64,000 nucleotides of DNA from an uncultured Gammaproteobacteria bacterium (GCA_964514545.1 CAZETR010000033.1:1954-65953); one strand, 5' to 3'. Numbered from the stretch's first letter, positions 5,735-64,000 are shown. Numbers and translations are program-made. Notes: generated by a model from the sequence alone, not told the origin.

Positions 5735-7395
5735 CCTTACTCCAAAAAACCATCATCGCTTTAATTTTGCTCCTTGCCGCGTTTATCAGGCTTGTAAATC
5801 TAAACCAGGTTCCACCGGGAGTTTACGCCGATACCGCAGCCCACGGCTACAACGCCTACTCCCTACTCAAAACAGGCAGGGACGAATACGGGAAACGTTT
5901 TCCTGTTTTCCTGCGCAGTTTTGGAACGTATTCTTCGCCGCTCTACGCGTATCTAACTGTAATCCCTGTAGCCATTTTTGGTCTTAACGCTTTTTCGACC
6001 AACCTGGTTTCCGCTCTCTCGGGTACACTGCTTTGCCTGATCACGTTTCTCATTCTCTACAACCCAGAGCAAAGCCAGTCTTTCCTAAAATCCACTCTAG
6101 CCACTCTGGTAATTGCACTCTCGCCTTGGTCAATTTTTGCCAGTCGCGGAGCATTCGAACCGAACTTGGGACTCTTTCTGCTATCAGTTGTAATCTTATG
6201 GCTTAAAAAAGCCGTCAACTCCCAACATTGGCTGATGTCAGCTGCGGCTATCGCGGGAGTATCCGGATACGCCTACCACGCGCAGCGCATTGTGTCTCCG
6301 CTTTTACTTTTTGTCTTTGTTATCACCCAAAGGTCCCTTCTTAGAAAGAAAAAGTCAATCGTTTTTCTATCGCTGCTTATCCTCATAATTATCCAGCTTC
6401 CCCAGCTCCTGCTTTCAAATACCAAAGGCGCCAACGTCAGACTAAGAGGCCAAAGTTATGCGGGGAAGATTCTCACCTCAACTTACAACCAAAACCCAAT
6501 TATCAATCTCTCGCTTCGAGGGTACGTTCTAGCGCGGGAATTTACCAGTCAGTACACGGCCTACTTGTCGCCGCGTAATCTATTCTTTGATCCGGACCCA
6601 GACAGACAAAGGTCAATCCCTGAACTAAGTGTGTTTTATCCGTGGATGATAATTTTTCTCTTTCTTGGCTTCAAAAGGTTTGGCGAATCCCGAGACGCAA
6701 CAAGAAACATCCTCGTAATTACTCTTTTGCTGGGACCCATAGCCGGGTCGCTAGTCTCCGACCCATTCTCAACTCTACGCGCACTCCCGGTTTTTTGGAT
6801 TATCTCTATTGCCATCTCTCTGGGTATTTGGGATCTTTTAACTAAACTCAAACTCGTTCCGGCAATTGTGTCCGGATGCGCACTTTTAATTATCTCAGCC
6901 AGTTCTATTTACAGCCATTATTTCGTGCTCCTGCCCAGTGAGCGGGCTATTGACTGGGGTTACGGTTATCAACTGCTTGCCCGGGAAATTAAAAGCCGGG
7001 CAAACACGAAGTTTGTTATCGACACATCTCGCGGCCAGCCTCCCCATATGCTCCTGGCCTTTTATCTACGTTACGATCCGCTAAAAATGCAGGCCGATTA
7101 CGGACCGAGGGTGCTAGATAATTACTACAACCGGGTTGACTTTGATCGCCATTACATTTTAGGCAATATCGAAACACGACCAATCAATTGGGAAAAGGAC
7201 ATATACACAGAACAAGTATTGGTAGGCGACAAACTGGCTATCTCACCAACTCAAGCCACTGAACATAAACTAACAAAAATCCTCGAGTTCAAAGATAAAA
7301 CCGGAGAAACACTACTGGTTGGGTACGAGACAAACCCCGGAGAAAAGTGCAAACTTCCTACAAGCGAACCGCAGTGCCGGGTTTATTCTTACTGA
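5731..7395 (+). CDS. GT-C fold glycosyltransferase (PMT/ArnT-like, family 39/83) membrane protein
   Basis: N-terminal 'LVNLNQVPPGVYADTAAHGYNAYSLLKTGRDEYG' loop-1 motif typical of PMT_2/ArnT enzymes, 10+ TM helices, soluble C-terminal domain. Confidence 0.65.
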   Translation: MTLLQKTIIALILLLAAFIRLVNLNQVPPGVYADTAAHGYNAYSLLKTGRDEYGKRFPVFLRSFGTYSSPLYAYLTVIPVAIFGLNAFSTNLVSALSGTLLCLITFLILYNPEQSQSFLKSTLATLVIALSPWSIFASRGAFEPNLGLFLLSVVILWLKKAVNSQHWLMSAAAIAGVSGYAYHAQRIVSPLLLFVFVITQRSLLRKKKSIVFLSLLILIIIQLPQLLLSNTKGANVRLRGQSYAGKILTSTYNQNPIINLSLRGYVLAREFTSQYTAYLSPRNLFFDPDPDRQRSIPELSVFYPWMIIFLFLGFKRFGESRDATRNILVITLLLGPIAGSLVSDPFSTLRALPVFWIISIAISLGIWDLLTKLKLVPAIVSGCALLIISASSIYSHYFVLLPSERAIDWGYGYQLLAREIKSRANTKFVIDTSRGQPPHMLLAFYLRYDPLKMQADYGPRVLDNYYNRVDFDRHYILGNIETRPINWEKDIYTEQVLVGDKLAISPTQATEHKLTKILEFKDKTGETLLVGYETNPGEKCKLPTSEPQCRVYSY

Positions 7396-11105: not shown

Positions 11106-11711
11106 CTAATATCTCTCGCCTCTCGGCTTTTCTACGAACGGATGAAGAATAGCCACCTCATCGGGCTTATTCTTGTGCAAGTACAAAATTTTATCGATGT
11201 AGTGGCCCAGATCTGCATAGAAATGGGTAAATCTAAGATCAATGTCATCGTTTGTCATCACCGTATCCCCGGCCGAATCTGCAGGATGGATAAATGTTGA
11301 CTTGGCGTGAACAATTACATTTCCCACGTTAAATAGCTTCCAAAATAGACTCGGTGCGTATGTTTTTACTTTGACTGTATCGTCCCACCCCAAGCTTCGC
11401 ATCCCCGTCGAAAATGGCGTGGTCGCCTCAAACCTGACAATCCGCCTGTCGGTAATATAAAACATGTTTCTCCCCTGCATCAAAAATATAGCCCAAATCC
11501 CCAATGCCCAAACAACGAGTCCTAAAAGAACTCCCAAAGAAACAACCCCAGCGTGTCCGGATCCCAAAAAGGAAAAACCGGCAATAATTGCCGCCCCCAG
11601 GCCCAGAACCTTTACGGTTCCAGGAACCAGAGCCACTGCGTGTTGGAGCCCGTGGAACAGAACCTTTTCTCCTTCCTGCTGGCCGGAGAACTTGTGCGGG
11701 GTATTGACCAC
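11106..11711 (-). CDS. hypothetical membrane protein (2 TM + cytoplasmic PH-like region)
   Basis: Hydrophobic core flanked by soluble segments; no motif. Confidence 0.4.
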   Translation of the reverse strand: MVNTPHKFSGQQEGEKVLFHGLQHAVALVPGTVKVLGLGAAIIAGFSFLGSGHAGVVSLGVLLGLVVWALGIWAIFLMQGRNMFYITDRRIVRFEATTPFSTGMRSLGWDDTVKVKTYAPSLFWKLFNVGNVIVHAKSTFIHPADSAGDTVMTNDDIDLRFTHFYADLGHYIDKILYLHKNKPDEVAILHPFVEKPRGERY

Positions 11712-42110: not shown

Positions 42111-42842
42111 CTAACCAGGCGTAAACTTGACCATTTCACTCTCCCCGATTGCCAACGCAACAAACCCTCGATTTCTACCCAGCATCTGCTCATCTTTTCG
42201 CTTGGCCATATAGAGAAGGCCGTCTACCCTTTTTCTTAACTCATCGGCACTTTCGCTCCCGTCATCTATACTTGCACCAATGCTTACTGTGACCGATCCA
42301 AAGTCAGACGGCAATCTAGCCATTTCAGCCAGAGATTTGGCGCAAACCTCTCCAACCTGACGAACAACTTCAATTAACTCCTCCTCTGAAACATCGGGGA
42401 TCACCACCAAAAACTCCTCTCCACCATCCCTACCTATCACCCAACCGTCCGACAGAGAATTTAAAATCTCTGCAAGTGCCAACAAAACCTTATCACCATC
42501 TGGATGACCGTAAGTATCGTTCACCTGTTTAAAGTGATCGACGTCCATCAATATCACTCCCACTTTTGAGTTATGTCTTCTCTGCAGAGATAGAGCGTCC
42601 TCCAGCCACTCTCTTATTCCTGTTTGATTCAACAGACCAGTCAACCTATCAACCCTAGTCAATACCTCAATTTCCAAACGCTCCTCAACTAGAATTCTAG
42701 CAAACTCTTCTCTCAATAACGTCCCGTCCACGATTTTATCGTGCATTTCTCCATACCTTACGTCTAGCGCCTCACTATGCAATCGCGCTCTATCTGGAAG
42801 AGAAAGCCTAGGCTTCTCCCGCCTTTCTCCCGCCTCGCTCAT
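42111..42842 (-). CDS. GGDEF-domain diguanylate cyclase
   Basis: 'GGEEF' active site, upstream 'DVDHFKQVNDTYGH' motif. Confidence 0.8.
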   Translation of the reverse strand: MSEAGERREKPRLSLPDRARLHSEALDVRYGEMHDKIVDGTLLREEFARILVEERLEIEVLTRVDRLTGLLNQTGIREWLEDALSLQRRHNSKVGVILMDVDHFKQVNDTYGHPDGDKVLLALAEILNSLSDGWVIGRDGGEEFLVVIPDVSEEELIEVVRQVGEVCAKSLAEMARLPSDFGSVTVSIGASIDDGSESADELRKRVDGLLYMAKRKDEQMLGRNRGFVALAIGESEMVKFTPG

Positions 42843-43681
42843 TTCAGCACCTCCACCAAATTCTCAAACAAACTTACAACTGTTACCGGACCGACACCCC
42901 CGGGTACCGGGGTAATGAAACTGGCCTTCGGGGAAACAGAAGCAAAGTCAAAGTCGCCCTGCGGGGAACCCACGTCAATAGCAATTACGCCCCGCTCGCC
43001 TCGCCGAAGCCCGTCGGGCGAAGGAGGGTCTTTTACCATATCGCGGGTTATAAGACCCGGCCGACCTGTGGCGCTAATTACCACGTCGGCGGTCTTTAAT
43101 TTCTCGATGTCGAAATCCTCTCTGTCCATGCCGAAAACTATCATCTTCCCTCTTTTCTCTATCTCTATCTCAATTCTTCTCCCAACCGTTCCCTTATTCC
43201 CAACAACCGCCAGGCTGACAGGGACTGTCCTTGTCAATCGCATCGCCTCATCGAGAATCGCGATAACCGCCCGAACAGTAGCCGGTAAAAGGTAACTATC
43301 GGGGCGAAGACCATCGATATCCTTACGCGAATCAATCAATTCCACAATTTCCGATTCCAAATCACGAGTATCGGGAAGTAACGGAAGCTGAATCATGATA
43401 CCGTCAACCGTAAAACCAACATTTAACCGCAGGATTAAATCTCTTAAACCGGCCGGGTTGAACGAATTGGAAATAGGGGTGGAGACAAAATCTATTCCCA
43501 TCTCGCCCGCTTTCTTTTCCTTAATCCGAGTGTATATCCGGCTGGGCTCATGATTGGGATTATAGATACTCGTTAGTTTGGGTCTGCGCCCAAGTTTTTC
43601 GGTCAGCTTAACTACTCTATCTCTAACCTCTATCTCTATCTTATTCGCAAACTCTTTACCGTTAAAAACTATGGGGGCCAT
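42839..43681 (-). CDS. folD: bifunctional methylenetetrahydrofolate dehydrogenase/cyclohydrolase
   Basis: C-terminal 'TPVPGGVGPVTV' and overall FolD layout. Confidence 0.85.
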   Translation of the reverse strand: MAPIVFNGKEFANKIEIEVRDRVVKLTEKLGRRPKLTSIYNPNHEPSRIYTRIKEKKAGEMGIDFVSTPISNSFNPAGLRDLILRLNVGFTVDGIMIQLPLLPDTRDLESEIVELIDSRKDIDGLRPDSYLLPATVRAVIAILDEAMRLTRTVPVSLAVVGNKGTVGRRIEIEIEKRGKMIVFGMDREDFDIEKLKTADVVISATGRPGLITRDMVKDPPSPDGLRRGERGVIAIDVGSPQGDFDFASVSPKASFITPVPGGVGPVTVVSLFENLVEVLK

Positions 43682-60828: not shown

Positions 60829-62967
60829 ATGGATATAATTCGGCAGAAAAACATCCATTCAGTCGTATTTGTTCTCGTCTTTTTAACCATCCCCATTATT
60901 GCCACCCCACTCAACTCCGAGCTTTTCGAATTCAATAAAATAGTCATTTTATATACACTAACGACTATTGCAGTTGGAGCCTGGATCGCCAGGATGATTT
61001 GGGAAAAGCGAATTATCATCAAACGCACCCCGTTTGATATTCCCCTGCTCCTCTTTCTCGCCTCGCAGATCCTCTCAACCATTTTCTCCATCGACCTTCA
61101 CACCTCAATCTTCGGCTACTATTCCAGGTTTAACGGCGGACTTCTTTCGACAATCTGTTATCTGCTGCTTTATTGGGCATTCGTCAGCAATATAGATGCA
61201 AGGCAAGCCAAAGCTATTTTAAAAACCACCCTTTGGACCGCCGCCTTCGTCGCTATCTGGGGAATTCTGGAGCACTTTGGCCACTCGCCCAGCTGTCTAA
61301 TTATTACAGGCAAGTTCAACGCCGAGTGTTGGGTCCAGGACGTGCAAAACAGAGTGTTCGCTACCCTGGGGCAACCGAATTGGCTGGCAGCTTACCTGGT
61401 TGTGCTTATCTTTATTCCAGTCTCAGAAACAATAGCAAATATTAAAAATCAAAGATCGAAAATACAAATAAAAAACTTAAATATAACTATCCTTGCCAAT
61501 TTAGCTATCTCGCTTCTTTTATTCGCCTGCCTGTTATTTACCAAGTCGAGATCTGGAATTCTGGCTTTCGCCATCTCATCGCTCGCCTACTGGACTCTTC
61601 TAATCATCAAGACCAGAGACGCAAAATTTCTAGTCAAACCATTTTTGGTATTTAATATTTCATTTTTAATTTTAGTCGCAACGTTTGGCACTCCCTGGAC
61701 ACCATCACTTGAAAGCTATCTAAAATCCCGATCCCAATCCCCGATTACATCCAAGCCTCAACCAGCCGACTTACTTATATCCGAATCGGGCGATATCAGA
61801 AAAGTTGTCTGGAAAGGAGCCATTAACCTGTGGAAACTAAAGCCTGTTTTTGGCTCCGGGGTCGAAACCTTTGCCTATGCCTATTACTGGACCCGACCGC
61901 CAGAACACAATCTCCTTTCCGAGTGGGACTTTGTCTATAACAAAGCGCATAACCAGTATCTTAATCTGGCCGCAACCAGCGGAAGCATCGGTTTACTAAC
62001 TTACATTTTGGTGATAGGGACGGCTGTTCTTATATTCCTCAAGCCACAGGCCACAAGCTCCAATGATTTGGGATTTCTGCCCGCGGCTCTGGCTGCCGGA
62101 TGGTTTAGTATTTTAATTACCAACTTTTTCGGCTTTTCGGTCGTGCCGGTGGACCTGCTCTTTTTTCTCCTGCCCGCCATTGCAACCGTAATCCAAGCTC
62201 AATCACCCGACCCCAATTATCAAACTCAATTCTCCCGTCTTCAACAGGGCTTCGACGGGGAACCAAATCTCAAATCTCAAATCTCTATCCCGCAAGTCAC
62301 CGGCCTCGCATTTATCTCTATCTCAACTCTCTATCTTCTCATCTCAATCGGACGTTACTGGTTTTCTGATTTTCACTACGCCAAATCAGTTACTTTTTCC
62401 AAAACAGTCCTGACCCTCCCCGACGCATTTGATGAAATCAGAAACGCCATTCGTCTAAACCATAGCGAACCGATTATGCTCGACCGCCTATCCTCAATTT
62501 CCACCGATATCGCCGGCGCCACCAAAAACAACGCGTCCATTTCCGCGCAAATGAAAGACCTGGCAGTGGCTGCCAGCGACGAAGCAATAAGACTTTCCCC
62601 TTACAATTTAACGCTTCTCCAAAACCGGGCAGCTAACCTAAACTCGCTCACATCGCTCGATCCGTCCCTTTTCCCCCAATCCGTCGCGGCTCTCCAAGCG
62701 GCAATCAATATCTCACCCAGCTTCCCCAAGTTCTACTACAACCTGGGTGTAATCTACAGCCAAAAAGGAATTTTTGATCCCGCGATAGAAAATCTAAAAA
62801 AAGCCTATCAACTTAAGCCCAACTACCAAGAACCGCTTTTGGCGCTTGCCCAGATTTATGATAAAGAAAAGGACCAAAAAACTGCCCTTGAATATTACCG
62901 AAAGCTTCTCGAAATAAACCCCTCCAATCCGATAGCGAAACAAAAACTAGGCCTGCCCGCTAATTGA
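60829..62967 (+). CDS. O-antigen ligase/polymerase-like (Wzy_C) membrane protein with C-terminal TPR repeats
   Basis: ~10 TM helices with large periplasmic loop, C-terminal TPR-like 'YNLGVIYSQKG…AYQLKPNYQE…'. Confidence 0.55.
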   Translation: MDIIRQKNIHSVVFVLVFLTIPIIATPLNSELFEFNKIVILYTLTTIAVGAWIARMIWEKRIIIKRTPFDIPLLLFLASQILSTIFSIDLHTSIFGYYSRFNGGLLSTICYLLLYWAFVSNIDARQAKAILKTTLWTAAFVAIWGILEHFGHSPSCLIITGKFNAECWVQDVQNRVFATLGQPNWLAAYLVVLIFIPVSETIANIKNQRSKIQIKNLNITILANLAISLLLFACLLFTKSRSGILAFAISSLAYWTLLIIKTRDAKFLVKPFLVFNISFLILVATFGTPWTPSLESYLKSRSQSPITSKPQPADLLISESGDIRKVVWKGAINLWKLKPVFGSGVETFAYAYYWTRPPEHNLLSEWDFVYNKAHNQYLNLAATSGSIGLLTYILVIGTAVLIFLKPQATSSNDLGFLPAALAAGWFSILITNFFGFSVVPVDLLFFLLPAIATVIQAQSPDPNYQTQFSRLQQGFDGEPNLKSQISIPQVTGLAFISISTLYLLISIGRYWFSDFHYAKSVTFSKTVLTLPDAFDEIRNAIRLNHSEPIMLDRLSSISTDIAGATKNNASISAQMKDLAVAASDEAIRLSPYNLTLLQNRAANLNSLTSLDPSLFPQSVAALQAAINISPSFPKFYYNLGVIYSQKGIFDPAIENLKKAYQLKPNYQEPLLALAQIYDKEKDQKTALEYYRKLLEINPSNPIAKQKLGLPAN

Positions 62968-62985
62968 CAGGGTTCAACCCTGTCA
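62965..62985. repeat. REP-like palindrome TGACAGGGTT-C-AACCCTGTCA (copy 1), overlapping the stop codon of the upstream gene
   Basis: Perfect 10-1-10 palindrome read directly. Confidence 0.85.
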
Positions 62986-62998
62986 GTCAAAATCACAG

Positions 62999-63686
62999 AG
63001 TGCCTTCAAAGAACACAATCAAGAACTATCTCCCCGAACACTACTATCACGCCTATAACCGAGGTGTCGAGAAACGCGACATTTTCATGGACGACCAAGA
63101 TTACCGAGTATTTCTATCCCTTATAAGACATCTCCTCACGCCAAAAACGGGTAGCTACTCCCACCCAATAACAGCCGTGACAGGGTTGAACCCTGTCAGA
63201 ATGCGGCAAATAGGCAATATCTCATCTGAAGTACAACTAGTAAGCTACTGCCTCATGCCAAACCATTTCCATTTATTAATCTGGCAAAAGACTCCCCTTG
63301 GCATGAAGAAATTGATACAAAAGCTTTGTACAAGTTACTCTATGTATTTCAATAAAAAATACTCTCGAGTCGGTCACTTGTTTCAGGGAATATACAAAGC
63401 TGTAAATATTGAAGGCGACAGCTATCTTCTCCACCTCTCAAGATACATCCACCTCAATCCGACCGACGTCGAAATAGACTACAAAACCTATCCCTATTCA
63501 AGTTATAAATATTTTCTTTCAGAAAAACCTCCGGTATGGCTTTATCCAAACCACATTCTTGAATACTTCAAACAAACGTCACCAATTAAGCCCATCGCAG
63601 AGGAGAAATTCAATTCCTACAAATCATTTGTCGAGGATTATTCCGAAGACTCGCGCAACATACTTCAAAATTATTGCGTTGATTAG
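62999..63686 (+). mobile_element. Y1 HuH transposase, REP-associated tyrosine transposase (RAYT)/IS200-like TnpA
   Basis: 'YHAYNRGVEKRDIF', HuH motif 'YCLMPNHFHLLIW', catalytic Tyr region 'YKAVNIEGDSYLLHLSRYIHLNP'; ORF-track TTG start at 62964 lies inside the REP, GTG at 62999 more plausible. Confidence 0.7.
63178..63198. repeat. REP-like palindrome copy 2 (TGACAGGGTT-G-AACCCTGTCA) located inside the transposase coding sequence, in frame
   Basis: Read directly; encodes …TAVTGLNPVRM…. Confidence 0.85.
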
Positions 63687-63692
63687 CCCCAA

Positions 63693-63711
63693 GACAGGGT
63701 TCAACCCTGTC
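63693..63711. repeat. REP-like palindrome copy 3 (GACAGGGTT-C-AACCCTGTC) just 3' of transposase stop
   Basis: Read directly. Confidence 0.85.
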
Positions 63712-63758
63712 ACTCTATCAAGCGCTCCACTTGGCATATAAGCTGGTAAAATACACTC

Positions 63759-64000
63759 ATGACACAAATCGTGAAGGTGCCGGCCGAGGTGTTGCGAAAT
63801 CCGGCCAAAAAAGTCGAAGGGGTTGACAAGAAAGTGTTAGGTATTATCGAGGAAATGCGAACTGCCCTACTGGCCCAAAAAAACCCTGAAGGCGTGGGGC
63901 TGGCCGCCCCGCAGATTGGCATTTCCCTGCGCATTTTTTTTATCCGCCCCTTCACGGAAGGAAGCAAAGCCAAACCGGAACCAAAACTGTTTATTAATCC
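63759..64000 (+). CDS. def: peptide deformylase (5' part, runs off window)
   Basis: ATG at 63759; motif 1 'EGVGLAAPQIG'; no stop before window end. Confidence 0.8.
   Translation, partial: MTQIVKVPAEVLRNPAKKVEGVDKKVLGIIEEMRTALLAQKNPEGVGLAAPQIGISLRIFFIRPFTEGSKAKPEPKLFIN

Follow-up and report, generated by a model that had tools for sequence, protein, structure and literature searches.

A class-2 Y1 HUH gene with in-frame and flanking copies of one palindrome: a probable REPtron of Patescibacteria type

Towards the 3' end of a 64,000-nucleotide stretch of DNA recorded for an uncultured Gammaproteobacteria bacterium (GCA_964514545.1, CAZETR010000033.1:1954-65953; the window, meaning this whole stretch), a gene resembling those of tyrosine transposases associated with repetitive extragenic palindromes (REPs), the so-called REP-associated tyrosine transposases (RAYTs), is surrounded by, and contains, copies of a short palindrome. 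We consider it probable that this locus is a REPtron of a Patescibacteria-specific clade of class-2 Y1 HUH proteins: a vertically inherited gene that is flanked by its cognate REPs, that carries an internal copy as a family-wide feature, and whose copies evolve in concert. An earlier note on this DNA had reported three copies of the palindrome within about 750 bp, and this was borne out: searching the whole window with the working pattern GACAGGGTTSAACCCTGTC, with up to 3 mismatches allowed, returned exactly three matches (62966-62984, 63179-63197 and 63693-63711), against a chance expectation of 0.03 in dinucleotide-preserving shuffles, none of which (0/100) reached three. In full, the palindrome reads (T)GACAGGGTT[C/G]AACCCTGTC(A): copies 1 and 2 are perfect 21-nt palindromes, TGACAGGGTT[C/G]AACCCTGTCA, copy 3 is 19 nt long, and the G at the centre of copy 2 makes it the reverse complement of copies 1 and 3, so that it is inverted relative to both (Table 1). 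The placement of the copies also agrees with the earlier description in most respects: copy 1 holds the TGA stop codon (62965-62967) of the upstream Wzy_C/TPR gene, copy 2 lies in frame inside the RAYT-like gene, where its codons GTG ACA GGG TTG AAC CCT GTC specify V-T-G-L-N-P-V, and copy 3 begins 7 nt past the TAG stop codon of that gene (63684-63686). As single-stranded DNA, each of the three is predicted to fold into a hairpin of 8-10 bp (free energy -8 to -13 kcal/mol, z about -5); as RNA, the hairpins reach -13 to -20 kcal/mol. A related, imperfect palindrome, TGACAGGGACTGTCCTTGTCA at 43216-43236, was considered as a fourth copy and rejected: it sits inside overlapping open reading frames (ORFs; 42777-43295 on the plus strand, 42839-43681 on the minus strand), folds no better than shuffles (z -0.57) and is probably a chance occurrence or a decayed relic. 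A search of Rfam gave nothing relevant, with a single sub-threshold chance match.

The assignment of the gene to the Y1 HUH proteins, for which a check against the PF01797 profile had been proposed, held when the check was run. Pfam Y1_Tnp (PF01797) matches the protein at 42.7 bits (cut-off 23, E 7e-11) over residues 88-163, this match being partial because the loop that holds copy 2 (site 1) interrupts the N-terminal part. The motifs NHFH, FQ, YIHLNP and SS are present in the homolog alignment, in which NHFH (residues 100-103, on strand 101-108) and Y161 (in helix 152-163) are invariant. An AlphaFold model built from 27 sequences (mean pLDDT 82) finds its best match in the PDB in 4er8, the complex of E. 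coli TnpA_REP with a REP hairpin, and its next matches in the TnpA proteins of ISDra2 and IS608; the fold matches 4er8, 2xo6 and 2a6m, the identity to 4er8 is only 12%, and a profile search against PDB sequences returned marginal matches to ISDra2 only. In the model, site 1 corresponds to a loop of residues 59-89 (pLDDT about 75) between helix A (44-58) and strand 2 (90-97), and the linker just after the catalytic tyrosine (site 2) is a loop following helix 152-163. More than 8000 relatives of the protein were found, the best match being 61% identical, and those that carry a name are all from Patescibacteria (Shapirobacteria, WWE3, 'Patescibacteria group'). Several records of metagenome-assembled genomes (MAGs) titled 'uncultured Gammaproteobacteria' (among them L209, L029, L077, CAYNJY, CAYIWI and CAYSOR; L numbers denote retrieved loci, P numbers homologous proteins) hold a Patescibacteria-type gene 53-55% identical to the window protein, together with the palindrome, and the Gammaproteobacteria label of these records may be wrong.

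The likely start codon of the gene is GTG 63000, since homologs begin with MPSRN, which aligns with VPSKN in the window; this places copy 1 on the 5' side of the gene. The earlier statement that copy 1 also overlaps the start of the transposase does not stand on this assignment, TTG 62964 being the start of a mechanical ORF. In homologs P0005, P0009, P0037, P0072 and P0098, N-terminal over-extension through the upstream palindrome has created spurious leader peptides of the 'LTGSDPV' type, and the TTG start in the window is explained as the same artefact.

The internal copy is a family-wide feature, located in a permissive surface loop of variable length between helix A and strand 2. Among 26 aligned close homologs (50-63% identity), the site-1 segment is conserved as HP..(V/L)TGxxPVRxRP, strict TGxxPV is found at this site in 73 of the 120 best homologs, and many homologs exhibit a second LTGxxPV directly after YIHLNP, at site 2. 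That copy 2 is instead a one-off recent REP insertion tolerated by this one gene, as the earlier note had suggested, would be in keeping with its perfect 21-nt inverted match to copy 1 and with the fact that REPs of this family do land in coding DNA. However, the same codons (NTG ACA GGG xx xx CCT GTC AGR, in HP..TGxxPVRxRP) are filled in the homologs of 50-63% identity, the syntenic loci L206 and L207 included, and the family repeatedly shows a palindrome at this loop; the earlier note had itself named conservation of the internal segment in homologs as speaking against an insertion, and the segment is conserved in all close homologs. We thus regard a one-off insertion as extremely improbable. 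At site 2 of the window no palindrome is left, and the linker there is probably the decayed relic of a REP; in L207, by our reading, the DNA of the site-2 stretch has retained a likeness to a REP of the TGSDPV type.

For the wider family, 80 metagenomic loci and several assembly loci were retrieved, of which 79 were usable; hairpins were detected as perfect stems of at least 7 bp, and flanks were searched within about 150 nt of the gene. Of 76 loci, 50 had such a hairpin on the upstream side, and of 77 loci, 56 had one on the downstream side, compared with 10.8% of 2397 background windows; these counts err on the low side and depend in part on the way in which copies were identified. The flank palindrome of a locus recurred inside its own gene (up to 2 mismatches) in 25 of 68 loci, compared with 47 of 4556 cross-locus pairs (~1%), and all internal matches fell at site 1 or site 2 (Table 1), with 0 of 33 elsewhere in the gene. 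The two sites coincide with the variable parts of the protein: the distance from strand 1 to the HuH motif ranges from 45 to 87 residues, with minimal forms that carry no insert (L191, L130, L195), and site 2 is a linker of 10-30 residues across loci; the distance from HuH to the catalytic tyrosine is constant at about 61 residues, and no internal REP match occurs there. In many lineages the cognate REP is housed in two loops, namely site 1 and the linker just after the catalytic tyrosine. The palindromes themselves are highly diverse between loci (TGACAGGG.., CAAGGCCAGGCCTTG, TTCCCAC..GTGGGAA, or a 27-nt core AATCTTACGAGGCTAAGCCTCGTAAGATT), and other clades present wholly different palindromes and peptides at the same two loops; in L173, L197 and L162 the internal copies are inverted doublets that mirror flanking doublets. 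A shared codon phase of sites 1 and 2, with recombination between them leading to an in-frame deletion, was considered as a general rule and rejected on the basis of L145, in which the same palindrome codes QGQAL at site 1 and TRPGL at site 2, which we read as different phases. Four perfect copies (upstream, site 1, site 2 and downstream) surround and occupy the homolog in L018:5884-6617 (Blackburnbacteria, MHCB01000038.1); this homolog is split by tblastn into two overlapping pieces with starts at 5917 and 6285, which by our arithmetic lie in different frames, and may be a frameshifted pseudogene or reflect an assembly error.

Comparison of the copies within and between loci reveals that they change together. 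The apex of all three copies is TTCAA/TTGAA in the window and TTACA/TGTAA in the syntenic L206 (upstream, site 1 and downstream), and in L207 the downstream copy has fully changed its stem from AGGG/CCCT to AAGG/CCTT, a change that the other two copies have made only halfway. One identical imperfection, CCTTGTCA, is common to three copies in L209, which points to identity of sequence beyond the conservation of a structure. The same behaviour is seen in the encoded peptides: the two middle residues co-vary within a protein (SD/SD/SD, PG/PG/PG, II/II/II, LH/LH, SR/SR) and match the apex variants of the palindromes (TCNGA, CCNGG, ATTAT and others). The dipeptides at sites 1 and 2 are identical in 29 of 49 proteins (shuffles: mean 4.2, maximum 14 in 10,000), and in all seven of seven disjoint nearest-neighbour pairs with a different site 1, site 2 differs as well (site 1/site 2 being, for example, PG/PG vs SR/PR, LH/LH vs SR/SR, and CN/CN vs SD/SD). 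Thus the copies in and around the gene evolve in concert, each being kept identical to the current REP variant of the genome.

In intact sites, read as NTG ACA GGG xxx xxx CCT GTC A.., the synonymous positions are frozen, with neighbouring codons drifting; site 1 of L002, which no longer has the palindrome, has come by drift to read ACT GGT TTT AAA CCA ACA. At site 2, 69 of 72 residues after PV belong to codon families that begin with A, and the residue before the motif is L, V or M (NTG) in 65 of 72. Since synonymous sites are frozen only while the palindrome is intact, the constraint acts on the nucleic acid. These observations bear on a different explanation, namely that TGxxPV is a motif selected at the protein level to which the palindrome is incidental, or that the palindrome serves as the operator of a regulator binding double-stranded DNA or as a terminator. 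The retention of T, G, P and V with the flanking HP and RxRP in the closest clade, even where the palindrome has decayed, would fit a protein motif. Yet non-coding copies of the same sequence flank the gene, the middle residues change radically (FN, SD, PG, II, LH) and at several sites at once while base pairing is kept or reshaped, the synonymous positions lose their constraint with the palindrome, and in other clades entirely different palindromes and peptides occupy the same loops. A terminator role is rejected because none of the copies is followed by a T-run, and the terminator scan, run together with that for promoters, did not exceed shuffles. Taken as a whole, we give this explanation hardly any chance of being correct.

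The neighbourhood of the gene is likewise conserved. The order Wzy/TPR - gene - def of the window is kept in L206 and L207: Pep_deformylase lies directly downstream in both of these closest homologs, and in L207 the Wzy/TPR ortholog upstream of the RAYT homolog is 39% identical over the C-terminus; L208 and L209 share a second order, gyrB - gene - holB. Because neighbourhoods are fixed across deep divergence in two separate sets of loci, we argue for a gene that has been domesticated and is inherited vertically, and not for an actively hopping insertion sequence (IS). An autonomous element of the IS200/IS605 type, moving as a unit with the flanking palindromes as its left-end and right-end hairpins, could claim the Y1 HUH fold, the appearance of IS608 and ISDra2 TnpA among the structure matches and the position of the hairpins just outside both ends of the gene. 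Against such an element stand the conserved chromosomal neighbourhood, the relative orientation of the flanking copies, which varies between loci, and the use of one and the same palindrome at both ends in place of distinct left and right ends; the protein has 228 residues and not about 150, no tnpB lies nearby, and its motifs are those of class 2 (NHFH, Y---NP), not of class 1 (DH[VI]H, Y---Q; table of PMC6006769). We therefore find an autonomous element very improbable. In a more distant homolog, P0098 (52% identity; L001:10001-13228), the gene adjoins a Wzy_C/TPR gene in the opposite order, with the RAYT gene first, which could be a coincidence or an old association. Just as the TGA in the foot of the palindrome ends the Wzy gene of the window, it closes the reading frame of the RAYT gene itself in L206 (738-740), L208 and L209.

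Copies of the palindrome are also found away from the gene. In 430 kb of homolog loci, 12 copies are found at distances of over 300 nt from the gene; mismatched palindromes gave 1 in 2150 kb. A scan of genome contigs with TGACAGGG-N5-CCCTGTCA showed, among the matches listed, that individual Patescibacteria MAGs can hold several copies spread over different contigs, and no homolog of the gene lies near these copies. Among the same matches, 19 of 32 dispersed copies sit inside long ORFs, of which 16 are read in the frame giving (L/V/M)TGxxPV, 2 in that giving DRxxPC and 1 is ambiguous, the third frame being closed by TGA; a binomial test of 16 vs 2 gives, by our own arithmetic, p of about 7e-4. 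The host genes confirmed by Pfam encode LepA, RecJ, a class-I tRNA synthetase, PheT, MgsA, TsaD and TatD, and the LepA and RecJ copies (L029, L077) come from the same assembly as the RAYT locus L209 and share its TCTCG apex. In L208, a copy within holB (11411-11431) reads VTGFNPV, a motif that is missing from the holB ortholog of L209. The copy inside the RAYT gene is hence a locally enriched special instance of a repeat, 21 nt or 7 codons long, whose in-frame presence is tolerated. Separately, MAGs of Ktedonobacterales and Chloroflexia contain, among the matches listed, very many inverted doublets of TGACAGGG-GCAAG-CCCTGTCA and its ...CTTGC... counterpart, about 60-78 bp apart (loci include L014, L021, L023, L030, L032, L035, L043, L044, L092 and L122); these are REPIN-like in look and have the same 8-bp stem as the Patescibacteria palindrome, and no homolog of the window protein was found in the 8-kb pieces around them.

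The copies could alternatively be a cis-regulatory handle that limits expression of the gene, with the protein binding an upstream palindrome that overlaps the promoter, with the in-frame hairpin impeding translation or attracting RNases, or with the protein targeting its own gene on single-stranded DNA. The perfect hairpins, their stability as RNA, the frozen synonymous sites kept at the same codons over deep divergence and the manner in which the internal copy tracks the flank copies are all compatible with such a role. In many insertion sequences the transposase promoter lies inside the terminal repeat, making autoregulation possible, and here 10 of 11 related loci have an upstream copy that starts with TTGACA, irrespective of pairing by the extra T, at 34-40 nt 5' of the start codon; in the window, TTGACA (62964-62969, the consensus -35 hexamer) is followed after 18 nt by CAAAAT, which ends 6 nt before the GTG. 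The upstream palindrome may accordingly double as a -35 box or promoter spacer, possibly for a leaderless mRNA. The upstream copies considered for TTGACA include those of L002, L004, L018, L126, L140 and L207-L209, together with the window region 62964-62993; in other clades (L183 and L173) TATAAT directly follows the hairpin. On the other side, a promoter scan found no more than shuffles would yield (2 found vs 1.9 expected), and the L206 hairpin ends 4 nt before the ATG, which misfits the -35 model. Some lineages can also do without one or the other internal site: the window, L206 and L207 have lost site 2, L002 shows a drifted site 1, and neither is found in minimal forms. Finally, tolerance alone explains the internal copy because the same palindrome sits in frame in unrelated housekeeping genes. 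We regard regulation by the copies, the strongest of the alternatives, as unlikely on balance.

Several observations weigh against the locus being a REPtron and keep our assignment at the level of the probable. The palindrome is absent from the other 62.7 kb of the window, and the density in the homolog loci is about 1 copy per 36 kb, i.e. tens and not hundreds per Mb; REP copies in E. coli or Pseudomonas number in the hundreds. The equivalog NCBIfam NF047646 (REP_Tyr_transpos) scores the protein at 31.3 bits, below its cut-off of 80, and the GT[AG]G foot is not present, TGAC and GTCA standing on the two sides of the palindrome. To these must be added the dependence of the hairpin counts on the way copies were collected, and the fact that the copies could be kept alike by RAYT-mediated replacement, by short-tract gene conversion or by selection for recognition. 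The REP-RAYT arrangement recognised in the earlier note is consequently upheld in part: the gene is bracketed by its own palindrome, which is dispersed in related genomes, but the protein falls short of the NCBIfam RAYT model (31 vs 80 bits) and its palindrome has no GTAG foot.

With the REPtron reading retained, a mechanism can be proposed by analogy. E. coli TnpA_REP and the TnpA proteins of IS608 and ISDra2 bind hairpins of single-stranded DNA and cut and rejoin at the foot of the hairpin. The enzyme encoded here would in the same manner bind the hairpin of its palindrome on single-stranded DNA, then cut and rejoin at its foot. As 21 nt correspond to 7 codons and the open frame codes a loop-friendly TGxxPV, copying or replacement could take place in coding DNA without breaking the frame. 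Copies would be made or replaced by the enzyme preferentially near and inside its own gene, selection would spare only those in the two tolerant loops, and ongoing replacement or short-tract conversion would keep them identical to the current variant. That the internal copies are more than passengers, serving as protected master or reference copies of the REP or as self-recognition sites, is a speculative extension that we think quite unlikely. If it were true, the presence of the substrate inside the gene that recognises it would physically link enzyme specificity and REP sequence, such that the pair could switch variant together and reseed the dispersed, largely protein-coding REPs of reduced genomes, or the enzyme could sense and limit its own dosage.

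To our knowledge, the copying of REPs and the co-evolution of REP and RAYT are still unresolved even in E. coli. The present clade offers a clean natural experiment in this regard: a minimal unit of 21 nt in up to 4 copies within 750 bp at fixed positions, variants that have switched repeatedly and in concert in many lineages, and in-frame copies in essential proteins of the streamlined genomes of Patescibacteria. That 2.1-like Y1 proteins (see below) can have cognate REPs widens the search space for REP-RAYT systems. For annotation, our results imply that ORF callers over-extend these genes via the upstream palindrome, and that TGxxPV heptapeptides in proteins of the Candidate Phyla Radiation (CPR) can be repeat-derived.

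Table 1. Positions of the palindrome copies, of the genes and motifs in the window, and of internal and in-frame copies in related loci.
Feature	Position	Strand	Remarks
REP copy 1, TGACAGGGTTCAACCCTGTCA	62965-62985	.	10-bp arms, C centre; within the 32 nt that separate the Wzy stop from the likely GTG start
REP copy 2, TGACAGGGTTGAACCCTGTCA	63178-63198	.	G centre, inverted; in frame in the RAYT-like gene, site 1
REP copy 3, GACAGGGTTCAACCCTGTC	63693-63711	.	9-bp arms, C centre; between the RAYT-like gene and def
RAYT-like class-2 Y1 HUH gene	63000..63686	+	228 aa from the inferred GTG; mechanical ORF 62964-63686
HuH motif NHFH	63261-63272	+	within the RAYT-like gene
Catalytic Tyr codon TAC	63444-63446	+	within YIHLNP
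Site 2 linker TDVEIDYKT, after the catalytic-Tyr helix	63462..63488	+	no palindrome here; second in-frame REP (LTGxxPV) in many homologs
Wzy_C (O-antigen ligase-like) gene with C-terminal TPR repeats	60829..62967	+	Pfam Wzy_C 1.1e-17 and TPR families
Start of peptide deformylase (def) gene, runs off the window	63760..64000	+	def assignment is a reading of the translation
Internal matches, site 1	16-33 codons before HuH		n=20
Internal matches, site 2	9-14 codons after catalytic Tyr		n=13
Perfect 21-nt in-frame copies in housekeeping genes	L029:6805, L077:4563, L118:2432, L066:4682, L050:4832, L091:333, L012:3828

Among the closest known systems is the classical REPtron, in which a RAYT (TnpA_REP; YafM in E. 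coli, structure 4er8) is accompanied by flanking REPs, reportedly as described by Nunvar in 2010, Bertels and Rainey in 2011, and Ton-Hoang and Messing in 2012. Both systems combine a Y1 HUH fold of class 2 (Y---NP) and a stable chromosomal position with a gene bracketed by its cognate hairpin; dispersal of the hairpin elsewhere in the genome is probable here too, being seen in related genomes. They differ in the palindrome, which here is a perfect 21-nt 'double-foot' TGAC...GTCA without a GTAG foot, in the low density of copies, many of which are intragenic, and in the host phylum, Patescibacteria. The missing foot is shared with subclasses 2.6 and 3, which also have no GT[AG]G foot (PMC6006769). 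In the same classification, Y---NP is the signature that defines class 2, the TnpA_REP-like proteins (Quentin, Siguier, Chandler and Fichant 2018, PMC6006769).

The earlier note had regarded a REP within the coding sequence as unusual, for which there is in fact a precedent in print: in-frame REPs within tnpAREP, as a rule located in the HuH-Tyr interval, have been reported as 'a unique feature of subclass 2.4' (Quentin et al. 2018, PMC6006769). Members of that subclass exhibit NH[IFV]H / WQ / YIxNNP, carry their insertions from strand 3 to helix C and come from Cyanobacteria and Bacteroidetes (PMC6006769). What the two cases have in common is that the RAYT gene houses cognate double-foot REPs in a variable region at the periphery, with its frame intact; the present clade, by contrast, has NHFH / FQ / YIHLNP and a constant distance from HuH to Tyr, with one insertion site preceding HuH and the other following Tyr. 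It is subclass 2.1 whose published key motifs the window protein matches, a comparison that is judged from motifs only and not from the hidden Markov models of the authors: this subclass has NH[YF]H, FQ, Y[IV]HLNP and SS after Tyr, a median length of 238 aa and no REPs found (PMC6006769). It corresponds to group 1 of Bertels and to most TIRYTs of Di Nocera 2013, some with long terminal inverted repeats, GGGGWSAS (PMC6006769, PMC3733652). A DnaA-like or helix-turn-helix C-terminal domain, a trait of subclass 2.1, was not detected in the window protein by Pfam at E <= 0.01, and unlike in subclass 2.1 clear hairpin REPs are found around and inside the gene.

Repeats in frame in functional housekeeping genes are also a property of the Rickettsia palindromic elements, reportedly described by Ogata in 2000. 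Those elements measure 100-150 bp, in contrast to the 21 nt (7 codons) of the repeat found here, which in addition is tied to the gene of a cognate Y1 enzyme and displays a frame preference of 16 to 2. There are published records of REPs within genes, of stop codons provided by REP termini and of Rickettsia palindromic elements in frame (Di Nocera 2013, PMC3733652); the termini of the present repeat similarly give neighbouring ORFs their stops, here TGA, compared with the TAG given by GTAG REPs. The TnpA proteins of IS200/IS605 (subclass 1.1), with DH[VI]H, Y[IV]ENQ, about 150 aa and a life as multi-copy IS (PMC6006769), share the catalytic fold and presumably the recognition of hairpins on single-stranded DNA; their class 1 motifs, short protein, multi-copy mobility as a unit and distinct ends are traits of which none is seen here. 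We found no literature on REP-RAYT systems in the CPR. Set beside these systems, what appears to be new is the phylum, a subclass that is 2.1-like by its motifs and has REPs, the two conserved loops used for insertion, which differ from those of subclass 2.4, the quantitative evidence that copies in the flanks and in the gene evolve in concert, and a minimal 7-codon unit with a strong frame preference.

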